Positions 12,623-26,060 are shown, counted from the stretch's first letter. The stretch is DNA of 64,000 bases from Capsulimonadaceae bacterium (GCA_965215505.1 OZ244065.1:3936001-4000000), one strand, 5' to 3'. The notes: generated by a model from the sequence alone, not told the origin. Translations and numbers: made by a program.

Positions 12623-15600
12623 TCACAGCGGGCAGATCAGGCTGTACGCGCACGAACGGCATTCGTCGCCCGACTCGGGCCGGGCCGGGAACAGGCCGAG
12701 CTGGATGCCGCGTGCGGCCTTCTCGTATTTCGCCAGCCTGTCGCCCTCCCACTTCAACTCCTGCTTCTTCTCCGGCGGCGCGATGGCCTTGATGGTGCCG
12801 TCGGACAGGTAACGAAGCTCGACGCGGACCGGCGTGTCCGGGTGGGTCTGCGTGGCCGCGCGGCGGTACAGGGCGAGTTTCTTGTCCGTGTGGTCGCTGT
12901 CGCCGGGCCGGCCGGTGAGGTGGCGGGCGACGATCAGGGTTCCGTCCTCCGTGTCCCGGCGGATCACATCGGGCCGCACATGGACGTGGCAGTTTGACAG
13001 CGTCGCGCGCAGCGACTTGATCCCCGCCCGCTGCTCCGTTTCGGCCCCCAATGCCCCGCCCGCGCGCAGCATCCCCAGCGCGCTTTCTTTGTACTTCGCC
13101 TCGTGCAGATGCCCGACCGGGCCGTGTTCCGCCCAGATGGCCTCCAAACGCGCCTCGGCCTCCGCCGCCGTGGGCGGCTGCCCCGCTTCGCGCGCGTCTT
13201 CCAGCCAGTGCAGGGTCCGGCGGACGCAGGCGTGGAACTGCGGGTAGCCGTCCCCGCCGAACGCGCCGGGCAGCTTCAAGCTCTGTCCGTAGTGGTACTG
13301 GCGCGGGCAGCGCCCATACGTCTCCAGGGCCGACGACGAGTACTCCGGCAGGGCCTCGGGCGTCGGCGTTATTAGGTCGTCCGCCTCGGGCGCGGGCGCA
13401 CGCCCTGCCGGCCAGGCCGTCTCGGCGATGCCGCGCTCCTGCAAATGCGGCTGGATCAGGGCCAGCAGCGGGGAGGGCGCGACGGCCTTGTCGGCGGCGT
13501 TCCTCTCGGCCCGCGAAAGGACGATGTGGTCGCGGGCGCGGGACAGGGCGACGAAGAACAGGCAATGCTCCTCGTCCAGCTCCTCGCCCGCCGCGTCCGC
13601 CAGGCCCGGCGGGGTGGGGATGCCGTCGCTCCGGCCCCGCGTGGGGAACTGACCCGCGCCCAGGTTCGGCAGGAAGACGACCGGGTATTCCAGCCCCTTG
13701 GCGGCGTGGGCCGTCAGCAGGCGGACGGCGTCCAGCGCCTCGGCCTCGGGCGGCAGGCTCCCGCGCGGAGCGCCGCCGGACGCCTGAAGCCGGCGCAGGT
13801 GGGCCAGGAACGCGCGGACGCTGTTCGGCGACCCGTGCGGCGTCCGGGGCGCGACCAGGCGCTTGCCCGCGTCGGCGGCCATCCCCAGCAGTTGATGGAT
13901 CGCCAGGGTGCGGGCCAGCCGCGCCAGCTCGCGAGGCTCACCTGCCGTCAGGTGCCGCAGATAGTCGGACAGCCCGAACAAATAGTGCCGCAACAGGGCG
14001 GCCGGGTCGTTCTCCATCGTCTCCAGTTCGGCCAGGTGCGCCGCCAGTTTCGCCAAACCAGGGTGCAGGCCAGGCTCGCTTAACGCTTCCAGCAGCGGCG
14101 TCTCGGCCCGGCCCATCTGCGTCAGGAAGGCCAGCGCGTCCGCCTGCGGGACGGCGTATTCGGGGAACGCGGCCACGCGGATCAGCGCGGAGCCGTCGGG
14201 GTCGGCGAACAGGGCCAGCAGGCAGAGCAGGTCCTTGATCTCGGGCCGTTCCAGCAGCGCGCCCAGATAAAGGACGGGGATGTCGCGCGCCGCCAGCAGG
14301 CCCGCCAGCGCCTCCGCCTGGGCGTGTGACCGGCACAGGATGGCCTGGTGGCGGTGGTCACAGCCGGCGGCCTTCAGGTCTTTGACGGCCTGCGCGATGC
14401 CCTCCGCCTGCCCGACATCGTCGGGCGAGACGGCCAATGTGACGGCGGGGTGGGGCGGGTTTTCGTGCGTGCCACGGTGCGCGCGCCAGACGGAAACATC
14501 GGGAAGGACAGGAGGGTAGGACGGGAGAAGAGGGCGGGGGGACCCCGCCCCTACGCCATTCCCTGTAGGGGCGGGGTCCCCCCGCCCTTCTTTGTCCTGC
14601 CCGTCCTTGCCTGGTTCCATCATCCCGCTCGCCGCGCCGAACAGGTCCACGATGGGTGCCCGCGAGCGGTAGTTGACGCCAAGTTCCAGCCGCCGCCCCG
14701 TCGGGTAGTCCCGCTCGAAGGCGGCGACGTTGGCGGGGGAGGCCCCCTGGAACTGGTAGATGCTCTGCCGGTGGTCGCCGACCGCCCACAGGCCTTGGGC
14801 TTGTTCCCCGGCCAGCAGGCGGACCAGGCGGGCGCAGGCGCGGTTGACGTCCTGGTATTCGTCTGCCAGGACGTGTGGGTACTCGCCTTGCAGGTCCGCC
14901 AGGACGGCGGGGTGGCTTTCCAAAAGCTCCACCGTCCGCGAGATCAGGCCGCCGAAGTCCAGGAAGCCGCTCTCAGCCAGCAGGCGCTCGTAGACCGCGT
15001 AGCAGTGCGCGACCTCGGCCGCCTTCGCGGCCTGCGCTTGCCTCTTGGCGGCGTCTTCCAGCTTGCCTTTCAGGCCCTTGTCGCTGCCCGCCGCCTGCAC
15101 CTGCGCTTCCAGGGCGGCCATCGCGGCGTCGGCGGGGGCCTGCATCGCCGCGCAGAGTTCGGCGTAACGCGCCGGCGGGCAAAGCTCGTCCTTGGCCCGC
15201 CCGATCTGCCCTAAAATCCCGCCCAGGTGGATGGCCGGGTTATAGAGGTTGTCCAGCGCGTCCAGCTTCAGTTCGGCGAGATTGTTTTCCAGCAGCGTCA
15301 CGCCGTCCAGAGTGTTCAGCAGCTTGATGTCGCCGGTCAGCCCGATCTTTCCCCCGTAGCGGCGCAGCACTTCCAGGCCGAACGAGTGGAACGTCCCCAC
15401 CCACGGCCCGGCCTTCTCGGACCCGACGCCCGCCGCGACCAGGCGCTCCTTCATCTCCCCGGCGGCCTTGCGGGAGAAGGTGAGGGCCAATATCTGCGGG
15501 GCCGGAACACCCAACCGCTGAGTCAGGAATTGGCAGCGGCCCACCAGCGTCTTGGTCTTGCCCGTCCCCGGCCCGGCCCCGAGCAGCAGCGGGCCGCAGG

Positions 15601-16228
15601 AGATTTGCGCCGCCGCCTGCTGCGATTCGTCAAGCGTCACGTCGGCGGATGCGGGCGTCGGCGCTGCCTCTGTCACCCCGTCGCAGTGCGGCAGCAGGAG
15701 GGCGTCGGCGAGCTGCATCTGGACCATGCCGGTCGGCAGACCTAGTGCCTCGGCGATGGCCCCCGCCGACTGCCCTTCCTCGCTGAACAGGCTGCGGGCC
15801 AATGGGCTAGGCAACAGCATTTCGGCGGCGTAGACGTTCGCCTCGTTCTCGCGCCTCTGTTTGGGCGCGTAGCCCTCCACCTTGCTCATCGCGCCCGCCG
15901 TGGCCTCGGCGGTTTGGGACAGGTCGAGGTCGCCGGCCGTGCAGGAGATGGCCTCGGCGTGGAGCCAGAAGTGGGCGAACTCGTGTACGGCATCGAACGC
16001 CTGCATGGCGAAGGGCCGGGAGCCGTCCTGGTAGATGGCCGACATCTCGTGGTCCAGCACCGCCGAGGCCCCCGCCAGCAGGGCATCATCCGGCGTGAGG
16101 AAATGCCGCACGAGGCCCGTGGCATGGAGACACGCCTCCACCACCGACTGCGCCGGCAGGGCTTCCTCTACCAGCAGTCCTAATTCCAGCCGCCGCGCCC
16201 GCGCCTGCCGCCGTATTTCACTACTCAT
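12623..16228 (-). CDS. ImmA/IrrE-like Zn metallopeptidase + UvrD/PcrA (SF1A) helicase + AddB/Cas4-like FeS PD-(D/E)XK domain fusion
   Basis: HEFAHFWLH and ENEANVYAAEMLLP; LDESQ, AGPGTGKT, LTFSRKAA, TFHSF, DEYQD, VGDHRQSIYQF, NYRS, TAHAAKGLEY, FVALSRARD; SSSALETYGRCPRQY...CRSCAYSLIC. Confidence 0.9.
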   Translation of the reverse strand: MSSEIRRQARARRLELGLLVEEALPAQSVVEACLHATGLVRHFLTPDDALLAGASAVLDHEMSAIYQDGSRPFAMQAFDAVHEFAHFWLHAEAISCTAGDLDLSQTAEATAGAMSKVEGYAPKQRRENEANVYAAEMLLPSPLARSLFSEEGQSAGAIAEALGLPTGMVQMQLADALLLPHCDGVTEAAPTPASADVTLDESQQAAAQISCGPLLLGAGPGTGKTKTLVGRCQFLTQRLGVPAPQILALTFSRKAAGEMKERLVAAGVGSEKAGPWVGTFHSFGLEVLRRYGGKIGLTGDIKLLNTLDGVTLLENNLAELKLDALDNLYNPAIHLGGILGQIGRAKDELCPPARYAELCAAMQAPADAAMAALEAQVQAAGSDKGLKGKLEDAAKRQAQAAKAAEVAHCYAVYERLLAESGFLDFGGLISRTVELLESHPAVLADLQGEYPHVLADEYQDVNRACARLVRLLAGEQAQGLWAVGDHRQSIYQFQGASPANVAAFERDYPTGRRLELGVNYRSRAPIVDLFGAASGMMEPGKDGQDKEGRGDPAPTGNGVGAGSPRPLLPSYPPVLPDVSVWRAHRGTHENPPHPAVTLAVSPDDVGQAEGIAQAVKDLKAAGCDHRHQAILCRSHAQAEALAGLLAARDIPVLYLGALLERPEIKDLLCLLALFADPDGSALIRVAAFPEYAVPQADALAFLTQMGRAETPLLEALSEPGLHPGLAKLAAHLAELETMENDPAALLRHYLFGLSDYLRHLTAGEPRELARLARTLAIHQLLGMAADAGKRLVAPRTPHGSPNSVRAFLAHLRRLQASGGAPRGSLPPEAEALDAVRLLTAHAAKGLEYPVVFLPNLGAGQFPTRGRSDGIPTPPGLADAAGEELDEEHCLFFVALSRARDHIVLSRAERNAADKAVAPSPLLALIQPHLQERGIAETAWPAGRAPAPEADDLITPTPEALPEYSSSALETYGRCPRQYHYGQSLKLPGAFGGDGYPQFHACVRRTLHWLEDAREAGQPPTAAEAEARLEAIWAEHGPVGHLHEAKYKESALGMLRAGGALGAETEQRAGIKSLRATLSNCHVHVRPDVIRRDTEDGTLIVARHLTGRPGDSDHTDKKLALYRRAATQTHPDTPVRVELRYLSDGTIKAIAPPEKKQELKWEGDRLAKYEKAARGIQLGLFPARPESGDECRSCAYSLICPL
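14532..14587. repeat. GTAG-type REP pair inside the helicase CDS
   Basis: gggcggggggaccccgcccctac + 10 nt + exact reverse complement; first arm identical to 17798-17820. Confidence 0.8.
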
Positions 16229-16877
16229 CTCCGAGTGTCCCCTCGCTTTCTATTTCCACATGCCAATAGTCCCGGTCGGCCTGTGGCAGACCGCCGAGGA
16301 CATCCTCAAACTTTTGTCGTGGTCCCGACTCGCGCAGGACCGGTGCCTGCCTGGACTTATATTGCGCGCCCGATGCCAGCCGGGGGGGCAGCCGCAGGTA
16401 CGCCTCTACTTCGTCCGCCGAGCGGCCCAACGCCTGCGCGGCCCGCTTGGCCAGCGAGCGCGGGAGCGAGGCGGCGTCCAGCAGCCTCTGGTTCAGGCGG
16501 GAGAGGGCGAGCGTGTCCAGGCGCAGTGCTTGGGCGAACTCGCGGGCGGTCAGGCCGCGCGCCTTGGCCTCGTCCACCAGGCTGACCAGCGGCTTGGGCG
16601 GGGCGAAATGGCGGTCCAGGGCAGCCCGGCCCAGGGCAACGGTTTCGGGGTCCTCGGGGCCGCCTTCCAGCGGGTCGGTCAGCGACAGGCCCGCCGCGAA
16701 CCCGGCGAGGCTGACCTCCACCAGCGCGTCGGCGTGGGCCGGGTACTGCGCCGCCCACTCGCGCAGCAGAGTCCGGTCGCCGGGGGCAGCTTGGGACGCC
16801 TGCGCGTAGGCGAACAGGACGTCGTCCGCTTCCACTTCGGTCAGGCTGGGGTCATCGGGGACTGCTTTTTCGTTCAT
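16221..16877 (-). CDS. Hypothetical protein: anti-sigma-like N-terminus and XRE-like HTH
   Basis: Overlaps both neighbours (4 and 8 bp); LREWAAQYPAHADAL; GLTAREFAQALRLDTLALSRLNQR. Confidence 0.75.
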   Translation of the reverse strand: MNEKAVPDDPSLTEVEADDVLFAYAQASQAAPGDRTLLREWAAQYPAHADALVEVSLAGFAAGLSLTDPLEGGPEDPETVALGRAALDRHFAPPKPLVSLVDEAKARGLTAREFAQALRLDTLALSRLNQRLLDAASLPRSLAKRAAQALGRSADEVEAYLRLPPRLASGAQYKSRQAPVLRESGPRQKFEDVLGGLPQADRDYWHVEIESEGTLGDE

Positions 16878-17599
16878 CGCGTGTCTTCATTCCAGAATGC
16901 CTGGGCGGTCTTCGCCCAGTTGCGGAGGGTGCGGTCGGTGACGCCGAGCCGCGTGCCGATCTCTCGATCCGTGAAGCCGTGCAGCCGCAGGTGGACCATC
17001 TCGGCGACGCGCGGGTGCCTCTGCGCCAGCCGCCGACAGAAGGCGGCGTCTTCTATCGCCGTGAAGGCGTTCACAGGGTCGGCGATCTGTGCCAGGCCGT
17101 CATGCTCCTCGCCGTCCGCGTCCATGCGCGCCAGCGAAACCGCGTCTTCGCGCCGCCGCCTCGCCGCCCTCCATGTGTTGATGAGGCACCGGTTGAAGCA
17201 GCCGGTGAAGTTGCACTCCCATAGCTCCTTGCCTGGCCCCAGGTCCAATGCAGCCTGCACGACCGCAATGATCGTCTCCTGCTTGGCGTCGGTCTTCTCT
17301 TCGGGTGTCAGGCCGGACCACGCCGCGACTCGCTTGGCGATGCTGTGGCTGACGCGCCGGACCAGGGCGTCCATGACGCGCCGGGAGGCGTCCGCGTCCC
17401 CCGCCTTTTGGTAAGCGCGGGCCATCGCGACCAGCGTTTCCCAGGTCAAGCCGTCCCCGCCCGCCCGCATCAGGGCCGCGTCACGGGACAGCCGCGCCAC
17501 CTCGGACAGCTCCCGGATGACGCCCTCGGGGCGCGTCCGCACTTGCAGCGGGCGCAGGAACTCGGCCCTGCCTTCGGCGTCCTCTGTGTCTCTACTCAT
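16874..17599 (-). CDS. Divergent sigma-70 (ECF-type) RNA polymerase sigma factor
   Basis: Region 2-like (DAKQETII...NRCLINTWRAARRR) and region 4 HTH (LRLHGFTDREIGTRLGVTDRTLRNW). Confidence 0.75.
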   Translation of the reverse strand: MSRDTEDAEGRAEFLRPLQVRTRPEGVIRELSEVARLSRDAALMRAGGDGLTWETLVAMARAYQKAGDADASRRVMDALVRRVSHSIAKRVAAWSGLTPEEKTDAKQETIIAVVQAALDLGPGKELWECNFTGCFNRCLINTWRAARRRREDAVSLARMDADGEEHDGLAQIADPVNAFTAIEDAAFCRRLAQRHPRVAEMVHLRLHGFTDREIGTRLGVTDRTLRNWAKTAQAFWNEDTR

Positions 17600-17669
17600 G
17601 GTGATTTCTTGAAAGCGGAAAACGATTTCCGCTTCTCGCGGAAAGGCGCGAGTGGGGAAGTGTCAGCAC

Positions 17670-17699
17670 AGTATAACACAGGCGGGCGGGTTGAGGCAA
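17670..17699 (-). promoter_or_regulatory. Putative sigma-70 promoter of the sigma/HTH/helicase operon
   Basis: Minus strand TTGCCT-N18-TATACT with extended TG; imperfect inverted repeat aagcggaaa...tttccgctt in the leader (~17611-17637). Confidence 0.5.
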
Positions 17700-17711
17700 A
17701 TGAGTAAGGAC

Positions 17712-17897
17712 GCCACGGGTTGAAACCCGAGGCTTGGAAGTGCCCACCGTCGAAGCGACGTTAAGAGCGACAAGGATCGGAGGGCGAGAAACAAAGAGGG
17801 CGGGGGGACCCCGCCCCTACCCGGTCATGCTCTTAGGTTCATGTCTTGCGTCCCCTGGACGCTGGGCTTTTCGGAGCCTCGGGTTTCAACCCGTGGC
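17712..17897. repeat. MITE/REP-like element family B with a nested GTAG REP
   Basis: Terminal IR gccacgggttgaaacccgaggct / agcctcgggtttcaacccgtggc, shared with 32226-32366; GTAG-type arm at 17798-17820. Confidence 0.85.
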
Positions 17898-17937
17898 TCC
17901 CCGCCGCTGAACGCACCCGAAGAACACGGAGACTACC

Positions 17938-19410
17938 ATGAAAGCCCAGTACATCGAAGACCTGACGCCCGGCGATGCCGTGGACGGCGAGTTCGTCCTC
18001 TCCCGGGCCGAGCGCGGCAAGAGGAAGAACGGCGAAGCCTTCCTGCGGGGCCAGCTCCAGGACCGCACCGGCACGGTGGCCGCCGTCGCCTGGACGCTCA
18101 CCGAGGGACAGATCGGGGCCGCGCTGGCGTCGCGCTATGTCCGCGTCCGGGGCACCGTCGGCCGGTACAAGGACGGGCGGCAGGTCACGATCACGTCGGC
18201 CCCGGAAGACATGGGCGAGCCGGAAGACCTCTCGGACTTCACGCGGGCCGCCGCCCTGCCCCGCGCCGAGCTGTGCCGCCGCCTCGACTCGCACCTGGAT
18301 ACGATCCAGAACCCATTTCTAAACGCCCTGCTGCGGGCCTTCTTCCATGACCCCAGGTTCCGCCGCCGATTCGACGAGGCCCCTGCCGCCATGGGCCTGC
18401 ACCACGCCTGCATGCACGGGCTGTTGCAGCACACGCTGGAGGTGACCGACCTCGCCGCCGCGATCGCCGACGTGCAGGGCCGCTGGGGCTACCCCGCCGT
18501 CTCGCGCGACGTGGTGGTCGGGGGCGCGCTGCTGCACGACATCGGCAAGGTCTATGAGCTTACCTGGGACGGCCCCGAGTATGGCTACACCCGCCGGGGG
18601 CAGCTCTACCAGCACATCATCCTCGGCTTCCAGATCGTCTCCAAGAAGATCCTCGGCATCCCCGGCTTCCCTCCCGACCTCACCGACGCCCTGTTGCACG
18701 GCATCCTGTCCCACCACGGCAAAGAAGAACACGGCTCGCCCGTTTCGCCCCAGATGCCGGAGGCGCAGATCGTCCACATGGCCGACGCCCTGGACGTCCA
18801 GCTTTTCTACATGATGGAGGCCCGCGCGGGCGCGGAGGGCGACACCGCCTGGCACCCGGCTTTGGAGGGCCGCGTCAAGACCGGAGGCCGGCGCGTTTAT
18901 TCGGGGTCGCTCGACTTCGCGCCGGACTTCTCGCGGCCCGAGCCGGCCCGCCTCCTCCCCGTCTTCCGCCTGGCCTCACGCGGCTCCGCGCCGGCCTTCG
19001 AAACCCGCCGCCTGCCTCTGCGCGGGCGGACGGCGGCCGGCCCGCCCGTTCTGGCCGATGACCGTGTGGAGGAGGAGCTTGATGTGGCGGCTGAGGGCCT
19101 GCCCACTGGCCCGGACCTGTTCCTGCTGCGAGTGGACGGCGAGAGCATGACCGGCGACGGCATCGCGGACGGCGACCTGATCGTCGTCCGCCCGCAGCAG
19201 CACCACGCGCCTGACGCCGTCCTCGTCTGCCTGCTGGACGACGACACGGTCACGATCAAGCGCGTGGAGCGGACGGCGTCCGGGGGCCTGCGCCTGCTGT
19301 CCTCTAACCCCGCGTTCGCCGCCATCCCCATCCCCATCGCCGACCCCGAACGCTTCCGGGTGCGCGGGCGCGTCCTGGGCGTCGCGCGCGGTGTCCCGGC
19401 GGTCCCTTGA
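17938..19410 (+). CDS. YhaM/Cbf1-like OB-fold + HD 3'-5' exonuclease fused to a LexA/UmuD S24 autopeptidase
   Basis: LQDRTGTV (OB); PAAMGLHHA..GLLQHTLEV, LLHDIGK, SHHGK.E.GSP, VHMAD; TAAGPP cleavage site, VDGESM (Ser), TIKR (Lys), LLSSNP. Confidence 0.9.
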   Translation: MKAQYIEDLTPGDAVDGEFVLSRAERGKRKNGEAFLRGQLQDRTGTVAAVAWTLTEGQIGAALASRYVRVRGTVGRYKDGRQVTITSAPEDMGEPEDLSDFTRAAALPRAELCRRLDSHLDTIQNPFLNALLRAFFHDPRFRRRFDEAPAAMGLHHACMHGLLQHTLEVTDLAAAIADVQGRWGYPAVSRDVVVGGALLHDIGKVYELTWDGPEYGYTRRGQLYQHIILGFQIVSKKILGIPGFPPDLTDALLHGILSHHGKEEHGSPVSPQMPEAQIVHMADALDVQLFYMMEARAGAEGDTAWHPALEGRVKTGGRRVYSGSLDFAPDFSRPEPARLLPVFRLASRGSAPAFETRRLPLRGRTAAGPPVLADDRVEEELDVAAEGLPTGPDLFLLRVDGESMTGDGIADGDLIVVRPQQHHAPDAVLVCLLDDDTVTIKRVERTASGGLRLLSSNPAFAAIPIPIADPERFRVRGRVLGVARGVPAVP

Positions 19411-25631: not shown

Positions 25632-25949
25632 TCACCATACAGGACGCCTGAATGCCCGCCGGGGGCGCTTCTTCAGCCGGTGCAGGATCTTCGGGTTCCG
25701 GTAGGTCGTCACCAAAGCGCCCCCTTGGGAGACGACGGCGACGGTGCCGTGGACGCGGGCGGCGTACTCCGCGCCCACCCAGAGCGGGATGTCGCGGCGG
25801 CGCAGATAGTACAGCACCGCGCCGGTGACGTGCAGGCGGGTCCCGTAGCGCAGGGTGAGGTCGAGCTGGTCGTCGGTGATGCCGCGCCGCCTCTGTCGCT
25901 CGGCCCCGTGGCCGGTCGTGGCGAGGCAGGCAAATGAGGTGATTGTCAT
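25632..25949 (-). CDS. Small basic DUF4258-like protein
   Basis: RBS AGGAGA; TGHGAERQRRRGITDDQLDLTLRYG; C-terminal LVTTY. Confidence 0.7.
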   Translation of the reverse strand: MTITSFACLATTGHGAERQRRRGITDDQLDLTLRYGTRLHVTGAVLYYLRRRDIPLWVGAEYAARVHGTVAVVSQGGALVTTYRNPKILHRLKKRPRRAFRRPVW

Positions 25950-26060
25950 CGGTTTCTCCTGTTCCGTCGGGGCGTGCTGCTGTCCTACTCGCGGGGAACG
26001 CGCGGAACCGGAAAGCGCGCAGGAAAACCGCCCCCCCGTGAACAACTATCACGAACGCCC

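Follow-up and report, generated by a model that had tools for sequence, protein, structure and literature searches.

We have analysed a stretch of 64,000 nucleotides of DNA from a Capsulimonadaceae bacterium (GCA_965215505.1 OZ244065.1:3936001-4000000), called here the window, and in particular a group of four genes at positions 12,623 to 19,410. Three of these lie on the minus strand, and encode a sigma factor of the extracytoplasmic function (ECF) type (P0003), an anti-sigma-like protein predicted to contain a helix-turn-helix (HTH) of the XRE type (P0002), and a fusion of an M78 peptidase with a UvrD helicase (P0001). We refer to these three genes as the trio. Successive genes of the trio overlap, by 4 nt (16874-16877, sigma and P0002) and by 8 nt (16221-16228, P0002 and P0001). 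The fourth gene is divergent from the trio and encodes a protein (P0004, or YhaM-S24) in which a YhaM-like OB-HD part is joined to an S24 domain. The original prediction, made from the sequence of the window, had proposed these four open reading frames (ORFs), and all are present where it had placed them (Table 1). The G+C content is 66-72% across the window, and the source names of related proteins indicate the family Capsulimonadaceae of the Armatimonadota. The genome itself is denoted G000; the genomes, loci and families with which it was compared carry G-, L- and f-numbers respectively.

The N-terminal domain of P0001 is related to the M78 peptidases. It matches PF06114 (Peptidase_M78, Pfam) over residues 75-173 with E = 2.5e-7, and residues H82, E83, H86 and H90 are invariant in 21 aligned copies, all of which were picked from loci that keep the motif. 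A phmmer search of the domain against the PDB gave nothing meaningful. A profile search succeeded, with CapP (7t5t, E = 6e-7) as the best solved relative and IrrE (3dte, E = 0.0019) as the next; these matches bear out the CapP/IrrE-like character that had been proposed for the peptidase.

The peptidase is followed by a helicase of superfamily 1 (SF1). The matches to PF00580 (E = 2.7e-58) and PF13361 (E = 1e-25) are strong, and the UvrD region spans residues 200-907. The sequence GPGTGKT is found at residue 219 and DEYQD at residue 456, and motifs III-VI are present; across 39 full-length copies of P0001 the Walker A, DEYQD, GDxRQSIY, NYRS, AKGLE and VALSRA motifs are all kept. P0001 scores below the NCBIfam equivalog cut-offs for PcrA (269 against 911), Rep (218 against 951) and UvrD (212 against 1144). 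A scan of contigs with the whole of P0001, which used a generic helicase pattern, returned ordinary PcrA loci only.

The original prediction had correctly described an HExxH peptidase joined to an intact helicase, but it missed a third domain at the C terminus. This matches PF12705 over residues 963-1200 (E = 4.3e-13), and four cysteines (C974, C1190, C1193 and C1199) are invariant among the 39 full-length copies. The catalytic D-x-K of motif III reads R-H-L in P0001, with D-Y-K retained in one relative only (L182). To judge from these sequences, the domain is probably an iron-sulphur (Fe-S) module that is no longer a nuclease.

The sigma factor P0003 can be classed as a divergent ECF member, because its score lies below the cut-off for TIGR02937 (22.9 bits against 42.9) though above that for PF07638 (Sigma70_ECF; 28.1 bits against 21.1). 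Its region 4 HTH is at residues 197-231. For the adjacent protein P0002 no family was found in Pfam, NCBIfam or PADLOC, and no HTH model in Pfam matches it. A word-based search gave 15 matches, and a profile search was needed for the full family; among 1.84 billion proteins this found 1604 representatives at E ≤ 0.001, 1132 at E ≤ 1e-10 and 240 at E ≤ 1e-30. P0002 is made up of N-terminal helices (residues ~11-91), an HTH (~98-165), a conserved unstructured segment PPRLAxGAxY(K/R) (164-174) and a C-terminal tail with the pattern FxxA...DxxYW.

An AlphaFold model of P0002 built from 35 sequences has a mean predicted local distance difference test (pLDDT) score of 85. All the Foldseek matches to the middle of the protein are HTH domains of XRE type (ClgR, C.AhdI, the 434 repressor, CapH, DdrO and HigA), and comparison with the N-terminal domain of CapH (7t5u) gave a target-normalised TM-score of 0.73. 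The model thus portrays the middle domain as XRE-like.

The original prediction had suggested that the complex of the sigma factor with P0002 be modelled. The model scored 0.82 in three runs, compared with 0.00 for the best of three controls. Of 80 solved complexes 58 attained that mark, as did 2 of 110 mismatched pairs; this calibration is rough, because we supplied our own alignments. The runs share at least 93% of their contacts, with a pLDDT for the partner of at least 82. In the modelled interface P0002 residues 11-91 contact sigma residues 69-147 and 185-217; the HTH, the PPRLAxGAxY(K/R) segment and the tail of P0002 fall outside it. As modelled, the interface resembles the clamp on regions 2 and 4 that is typical of anti-sigma domains. 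The high score may partly reflect likeness to known structures, because sigma/anti-sigma complexes have already been solved. The assignment of P0002 as an anti-sigma/XRE protein is nevertheless supported in silico, by both the complex model and the fold matches.

We have compared 41 loci, namely the window and 40 others, by searches with iterated profiles; several families of the phylum are represented among them. Of the 23 other genomes of the genus, 21 have the fusion at E ≤ 1e-100, compared with none of 17 others. At E ≤ 1e-60 a sample of 301 genomes from across the phylum contains 40 with the fusion, concentrated in families f1 (16 of 18), f8 (13 of 17), f27 (6 of 15) and f2 (3 of 14), and the M78 domain is present in 93 of the best 120 database matches to the fusion. 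The order sigma, P0002, fusion occurs in 28 of the 41 loci, including those of the distant families f8 and f27. A sigma orthologue stands first in the trio at 27 of these, and at the remaining one the sigma gene is cut off by the end of the contig. The original prediction had proposed testing conservation of this order, and since it recurs in so many loci the trio is not a chance juxtaposition. No further neighbour is conserved beyond the genus.

The losses are also informative. Seven of the 41 loci (L115, L119, L124, L166, L185, L128 and L170) have lost the HExxH motif or the N-terminal domain, and all seven are without adjacent partners. The destroyed motif takes the form HHFAH in three cases, HA(E/D)AH in two and HAAAR in one, and there is one deletion. 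Four loci keep HExxH without adjacent partners, and two are cut by contig ends. A profile search of whole genomes found no P0002 in G002, G006, G009 and G023, whose copies of the fusion carry the dead motif. By the same search P0002 was found to be encoded elsewhere in the genome in G074, G174 and G158, where HExxH is live and the partners are not adjacent. The losses of partners and motif fall in about four separate lineages. Loss of HExxH thus accompanies loss of the partner genes, a pattern that would be expected if the peptidase acts on the partner pair. The conserved order and the joint loss together support the view that the trio is a functional unit. A P0002 homologue is present in all 16 of the f2 genomes.

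Some loci show local departures from the standard arrangement. The P0002 and fusion genes are separated by insertions in G013 (~2.2 kb, L112:5813-8060) and G111 (~1.1 kb, L179:7101-8235). In G017 (L122:8176-11636) the fusion is split into overlapping ORFs of 644 and 679 aa, which suggests a frameshift or an assembly error. In the f8 genome G122 a canonical lexA gene (L174:13694-14332) is divergent from the cassette, beyond one small gene of the EYxRFR family described below. The G074 copy of the fusion has an N-terminal extension of 426 residues that was considered as a fused partner; this proved to be an over-extended ORF containing a copy of the motif described below.

The aligned sequences upstream of the sigma genes share a promoter-like motif, comprising TTTCCG(G/C)TT, a spacer, and (C/G)nGAGT(A/G), with 18-19 nt from TTTCCG to GAGT. 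It flanks the sigma genes in both orientations and across families, and at many loci there is a second copy in the opposite direction. In f27 and f8 the motif is immediately 5′ of the sigma start, a placement that, read from the sequence, would give a leaderless or near-leaderless message. Within the genus TTTCCG-N16-ATGAGT is found in 13 of the 14 sigma genes shown, the row for L114 ending before the start codon. A transcript from this sigma-proximal copy would miss the sigma start, and might feed only the anti-sigma and the sensor. Boxes like TTGCGT-N17-TGTTATGAT are conserved 5′ of the sigma gene in at least eight loci of the genus, and the window contains a candidate promoter of housekeeping type for the sigma operon (Table 1). 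Palindromes of the form CGGAAA...TTTCCG were considered as operators or RNA hairpins, and are really back-to-back −35 boxes; beyond these no operator was found near the sigma start.

Where else does this motif occur? Genomes were scanned with the pattern TTCCGNTT-N13-15-SNGAGTR, using the pattern read backwards as control. There were 6 matches in G000 and 2 for the control; five genomes of the genus gave totals of 20 and 4, and five that are more distant gave 36 and 11 (G211, 7 and 0; G281, 7 and 1; G074, 12 and 1; G174, 9 and 1; G061, 1 and 7). Five of the six sites in G000 precede recJ, a DUF488 gene, the YhaM-S24 gene, an ORF of 105 aa and the gene for a PLD-SF2 helicase of 1075 aa. The recJ start is 7 nt after the motif, and a looser pattern adds a YhcG/DUF1016 nuclease gene as a probable target. 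Since the motif precedes its gene, we regard YhaM-S24 as a member of the proposed regulon; the distant YhaM-S24 homologues in G013 and G017 are also preceded by the motif. The 105-aa ORF is flanked by genes for a DUF1559 protein and an ABC ATPase, and in G035 its homologue is directly 5′ of the YhaM-S24 homologue.

Of the 23 genomes of the genus that were examined for it, 14 have the motif before recJ. In five genomes (G022, G006, G019, G009 and G015) it is replaced by a conserved inserted pair of small genes, and it is absent in G002, G003, G018 and G012, the first three of which are without P0002. Further targets in the genus include the PLD-helicase again, an ARPP-1 family gene, a REase-ARP gene, a VWA protein and a DEAD/Cas3-like helicase. 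The ARPP-1 cluster (PF20208 for its L113 member) is divergent from the sigma gene at L111, L112, L113, L118, L122 and L130, with only a fragment at L121, and a motif copy is aimed at the cluster gene in four loci (L111 of G001, L112 of G013, L118 and L130). The REase-ARP gene that bears the motif is elsewhere in G013. In G021 three of the five matches fall within a single 10-kb stretch of a CRISPR-Cas I-C locus, lying ~160 nt before the first repeat of an array, before cas5 and before cas4. Ten of the 30 downstream ORFs in the distant genomes were scanned, and these include Cas3, an N6/N4 DNA methylase, an Eco57I-type methylase, an HTH-M78 fusion and two Uma2 nucleases; three of the ten have no family. 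The targets of the motif are thus mostly nucleic-acid enzymes, and mix repair genes with defence genes.

Three further observations were made beside the motif. In G000 a protein of 533 aa in which sigma regions 2 and 4 are accompanied by a weak SnoaL-like match (5056470-5058068, minus strand; L192) starts 9 nt after TTTCCG-N19-GAGTGG, which could reflect cross-talk between sigma factors, or chance. An Rfam DUF3800-IX RNA (L191:1163-1232, minus strand, equivalent to G000 ~4712162-4712231; 38.6 bits against a gathering threshold of 36.8) lies ~830 nt downstream of the remaining G000 match, which is an ambiguous one discussed below. In f27 and f8 a family of small proteins of ~95-110 aa with the pattern EYxRFR(D/E)(I/V)L and no Pfam family is encoded divergently from sigma, sometimes behind a motif copy (Table 1).

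The two halves of the divergently encoded protein P0004 have clear relatives. The OB-HD part matches the solved YhaM structure 9h3f with E = 8.5e-36, and the S24 part matches the C-terminal domain of LexA with E = 5e-15. P0004 keeps the HD residues, TAAG at 365-368 (a LexA-like site), GESM at 401 and IKR at 440. Across nine fusion homologues and two LexA sequences the AAG site, GxSM and (V/I)K(R/H/T) are kept, with the lysine invariant; the cleavage site and Ser/Lys dyad are conserved, and the S24 half is intact as had been predicted. P0004 scores 147.6 against a cut-off of 460 for the YhaM equivalog NF010007, with an OB plus HD architecture that matches YhaM. For LexA (TIGR00498) the score is 77.5 against a cut-off of 110.95, the OB and HD domains replacing the winged helix. 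Because it has no winged-helix DNA-binding domain, we do not consider P0004 to be a repressor. HD and S24 occur together in 30 of the 120 P0004 homologues listed, and from the names on those matches the fusion appears to be largely confined to the Armatimonadota. In a near-identical relative (98% identity, 70% coverage) the 390-aa version of the YhaM-like protein, P0296, has no S24 domain listed, and may be a truncation.

The original prediction had taken YhaM-S24 to belong to the same locus as the trio, but this adjacency is not conserved. It is seen only in this genome, in G011 and probably in G022, and elsewhere the genes are far apart: in G013 over 1 Mb separates the P0004 homologue from the trio, and in G017 the two are on different contigs. 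The link between trio and YhaM-S24 is a common promoter motif, and not a conserved locus. In the window a MITE-like repeat stands between the motif and the P0004 start; it is without counterpart in the closest relative, G011, and genome-wide it gave 154 BLAST pieces.

In three f2 genomes palindromes like GAACTTAAGTTC follow a TATAAT box near the YhaM-S24 homologues. The exact GAACTTAAGTTC-type word is not enriched, with fewer matches than the control, and no GAAC-N4-GTTC lies close to the S24 genes in G000. The lexA genes of G033 and G040 bear a related palindrome, GCAAAT-N4-GTTTGC. These sequences give only a hint of a LexA box for the f2 YhaM-S24 homologues.

Relatives of the cassette are also carried by plasmids. 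The junction of M78 domain and helicase (P0001 residues 1-260) was found in 89 plasmid records, 78 of which cover at least 80% of the query; 45 are from Acinetobacter and 10 from Rhizobium. Plasmid pMl5 of Sinorhizobium medicae has three overlapping genes of matching sizes followed by an operon with a weak ThiF/E1-like match (25.6 bits against 28.1). The sequence TTTCCG-N18-TTGTA(G/A) stands before the first, sigma-like, gene and again after the helicase gene.

The genes surrounding the locus in the window encode glutaminase-like, TetR, Cu-monooxygenase-like, thioredoxin-like, Ig-like repeat and DUF1559 proteins. Proximity to a defence island had been put forward as a check; judged by the content of the neighbouring genes in the window the trio does not lie within one. 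PADLOC returned only generic matches to GajB and Cas3-HD on the locus.

Table 1. Positions of genes, domains and promoter-like elements. Coordinates without a locus prefix are those of the window.
Feature	Position	Strand	Basis or remarks
P0003, ECF-like sigma factor, 241 aa	16874..17599	-	PF07638
P0002, anti-sigma-like with XRE-type HTH (predicted), 218 aa	16221..16877	-	fold and complex model; no family model
P0001, M78 peptidase + UvrD helicase + Fe-S PD-(D/E)XK-like domain, 1201 aa	12623..16228	-	
P0001 residues 1-198, M78 (CapP/IrrE-like) peptidase domain, HEFAH at 82-86	15635..16228	-	PF06114
P0001 residues ~199-930, UvrD/PcrA-type SF1 helicase	13439..15634	-	PF00580, PF13361
P0001 residues ~960-1201, C-terminal Fe-S PD-(D/E)XK/Cas4-like domain	12626..13351	-	PF12705
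P0004, OB-HD (YhaM-like) + S24, 490 aa	17938..19410	+	PF01966, PF01336, PF00717
Motif TTTCCG-N18-GAGTGG aimed at the YhaM-S24 gene	17626..17655	+	same orientation in G011 and G022
Second motif copy, back to back with the first	17592..17621	-	GAGTAG overlaps sigma start codon (ATGAGTAG); back-to-back arrangement shared by G011 and G022
Housekeeping-type promoter candidate for the sigma operon	17670..17699	-	TTGCCT-N17-TGTTATACT
MITE-like repeat with inverted ends, ~200 bp	17700..17905	.	G011 comparison
Motif copy in the window	25986..26013	-	TTCCGGTTCCGCGCGTTCCCCGCGAGTA
105-aa ORF	25635..25949	-	start 36 nt 3′ of motif; GC3 0.90; no Pfam family
Small-gene pair 5′ of recJ	L197 (G022)		
Small-gene pair 5′ of recJ	L204 (G006)		
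Small-gene pair 5′ of recJ	L208 (G019)		
Small-gene pair 5′ of recJ	L215 (G009)		
Small-gene pair 5′ of recJ	L217 (G015)		
Small EYxRFR family member	L171:13267-13599		
Small EYxRFR family member	L172:6367-6684		
Small EYxRFR family member	L177:6088-6420		
Small EYxRFR family member	L178:13088-13423		
Small EYxRFR family member	L174:12987-13505		
Small EYxRFR family member	L175:5510-5794		
Small EYxRFR family member	L179:4788-5153		
Small EYxRFR family member	L182:13161-13865		

How might these components work together? The reading that we favor, with a probability of about 0.6, is that the trio forms a cytoplasmic DNA-sensing proteolytic switch of sigma and anti-sigma, with a dispersed regulon of repair and defence genes. 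P0003 would be a dedicated ECF-like sigma factor, and the complex model suggests that the N-terminal helices of P0002 would hold it inactive. As the domain fusion would have it, P0001 would be the sensor, with its UvrD motor and dead Fe-S domain of end-binding-like character engaging abnormal DNA, for example ends, single-stranded DNA (ssDNA) or foreign DNA. Once engaged, P0001 would let its M78 domain cut P0002, by analogy with CapP and CapH, IrrE and DdrO, and ImmA and ImmR. The freed sigma factor would then transcribe from TTTCCG-N18-GAGT(A/G) promoters; here the motif itself is observed, and its use in this way is what we infer. As a member of the regulon, YhaM-S24 would be produced when the switch is triggered, and its LexA-like site could provide a second, RecA-dependent gate that releases or activates the nuclease.

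A number of observations weigh against this reading. The Foldseek E-values for P0002 are weak, at 0.046 or worse, and its HTH could bind DNA as that of CapH does. The nuclease-like domain is inactive and so does not point to a particular feature of the DNA as the one sensed. G019 keeps HExxH in the fusion and has only fragments of the sigma gene, with no P0002 found genome-wide, and G023 keeps the recJ motif where no P0002 was found. In the genus the sigma-proximal GAGTA block overlaps the start codon of the sigma gene, which clouds the case for autoregulation. The scan pattern was itself built on sites from the lineages that were scanned, and G061 shows no enrichment of the motif. Finally, the ambiguous match in G000, at 4713063, is within the 3′ end of a conserved coding frame, and its conservation in G008 therefore proves little.

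Other explanations have been considered. P0002 might be a DNA-binding repressor of CapH/DdrO type that is cut by P0001, with the sigma gene as a passenger or a target. The XRE HTH fold of its middle domain would fit such a role, as would the palindromes near the sigma start and the fact that the characterised partners of M78 peptidases, in the literature consulted, are all repressors. However, the palindromes are explained by the −35 boxes of divergent promoters, the complex model places the N-terminal helices on sigma regions 2 and 4 with a score far from that of the controls, and sigma and P0002 stay paired in G074, where the helicase gene is elsewhere. We consider this explanation unlikely. 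It is rather improbable too that the promoter-like motif belongs to another sigma factor, or is an accident of composition, such that the regulon is spurious. The motif is short, the control patterns did find matches (2, 4 and 11), G061 is not enriched, and a second ECF sigma gene in G000 carries a similar motif. Yet it is associated with the sigma gene of the cassette itself, both in several families and on a plasmid from a proteobacterium, it is absent 5′ of recJ in genomes without P0002, and three copies cluster in one cas locus.

Two further possibilities center on the helicase. P0001 might be chiefly a repair helicase-nuclease of the AddA/AdnA kind, to which the M78 domain and the neighbouring genes are incidental. 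It has a UvrD core and a RecB/Cas4-like end domain, with weak NCBIfam matches to AddA and RecB, and it is vertically inherited within the genus; but nuclease motif III is lost, every equivalog cut-off is missed widely, and whether the M78 motif is intact goes with whether the partners are present. On balance this too seems rather improbable. More doubtful still, and in our view very unlikely, is the idea that the trio is a self-contained anti-phage effector like GajB of Gabija or Nhi, with sigma and HTH protein serving only to tune its expression. The PADLOC models for GajB and for the DRT helicase match the UvrD core, and related cassettes are found on plasmids. These matches are however to generic UvrD, the locus has no GajA-like neighbour, the nuclease-like domain is inactive and the motif marks genes far from the locus.

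Bacteria have to decide when to switch on costly or dangerous genes for immunity and repair. If the proteolytic switch is correct, the cassette would add an ATP-driven DNA motor that is coupled to a protease acting on an anti-sigma, and in this lineage its promoter code would tie recombination and repair enzymes, CRISPR-Cas and restriction systems to one signal. Because this promoter code is readable, the targets are predictable genome by genome. The YhaM-S24 fusion offers a case for asking whether self-cleavage of the LexA type can gate a nuclease.

A CapH and CapP pair, like the trio, has an M78 HExxH peptidase with an XRE-HTH partner encoded just upstream, and the published logic of that pair is the sensing of DNA damage through ssDNA. 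In contrast to CapP, the peptidase described here forms one protein with a whole UvrD helicase and an Fe-S domain; P0002 has an additional N-terminal domain that is predicted to bind sigma, and the proposed output is a sigma factor with dispersed promoters rather than derepression of one adjacent operon. In IrrE/PprI with DdrO of Deinococcus, and ImmA with ImmR of ICEBs1, DNA damage leads to inactivation of an XRE protein by a protease of COG2856. The pairing of COG2856 with XRE is common to these and the trio, and inactivation induces the genes of repair or of the element; however, IrrE has a GAF-like domain where P0001 has a helicase, and DdrO and ImmR are repressors with no sigma factor involved.

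P0001 recalls AddA/RecB/AdnA and AddB/Cas4 in that its UvrD-type motor leads into a RecB-family domain carrying a cluster of four cysteines. Unlike AddA/RecB/AdnA, P0001 is without the catalytic D-x-K, has an N-terminal peptidase and scores far below the family cut-offs. The locus differs from Gabija in having no GajA ATPase-TOPRIM neighbour, and the GajB model covers the generic core of the helicase. P0004 is like LexA and UmuD in the AAG site and Ser/Lys dyad of its S24 domain, and like YhaM in its OB and HD part.

In ECF sigma/anti-sigma pairs with regulated proteolysis, an anti-sigma encoded alongside binds the sigma factor and sets it free when cut, as is proposed for the trio. The anti-sigmas of these pairs and those of the DdvA type are membrane-spanning proteins, and are substrates of the site-1 and site-2 proteases. 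P0002 is unlike them in being cytoplasmic and HTH-bearing, and in its pairing with a DNA motor that carries its own protease. In Myxococcus xanthus the sigma/anti-sigma pair DdvS/DdvA controls CRISPR-Cas and CBASS genes (PMC6061681, PMC11506125).

A 2026 paper names three families of DNA-damage-sensing regulators of immune operons, CapW/BrxR, CapH+CapP and CapK+CapS. The trio may represent a fourth class of DNA-sensing regulator of immunity and repair, in which a helicase-driven protease destroys an anti-sigma. It would be a LexA-independent chromosomal master switch in the Armatimonadota, with an alarm regulon that co-induces enzymes for processing DNA ends (RecJ, the PLD-helicase and YhaM-S24) along with CRISPR-Cas and restriction-modification, and would be plasmid-borne before ubiquitin-like operons in the Proteobacteria. 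We put this tentative proposal at slightly below even odds. The original prediction knew of no described system of this kind, and indeed no description of an M78-UvrD fusion with sigma and HTH partners was found in the papers searched (including PMC3632139, PMC7907104, PMC13373217 and bioRxiv 2024.11.21.623953), although the supplementary tables on Bub and CapK/CapS may list it among unnamed neighbours or within the CapH+CapP counts. Set beside the known systems, the trio would be a COG2856/XRE switch combined with a sigma/anti-sigma pair, and provided with an unusual sensor.

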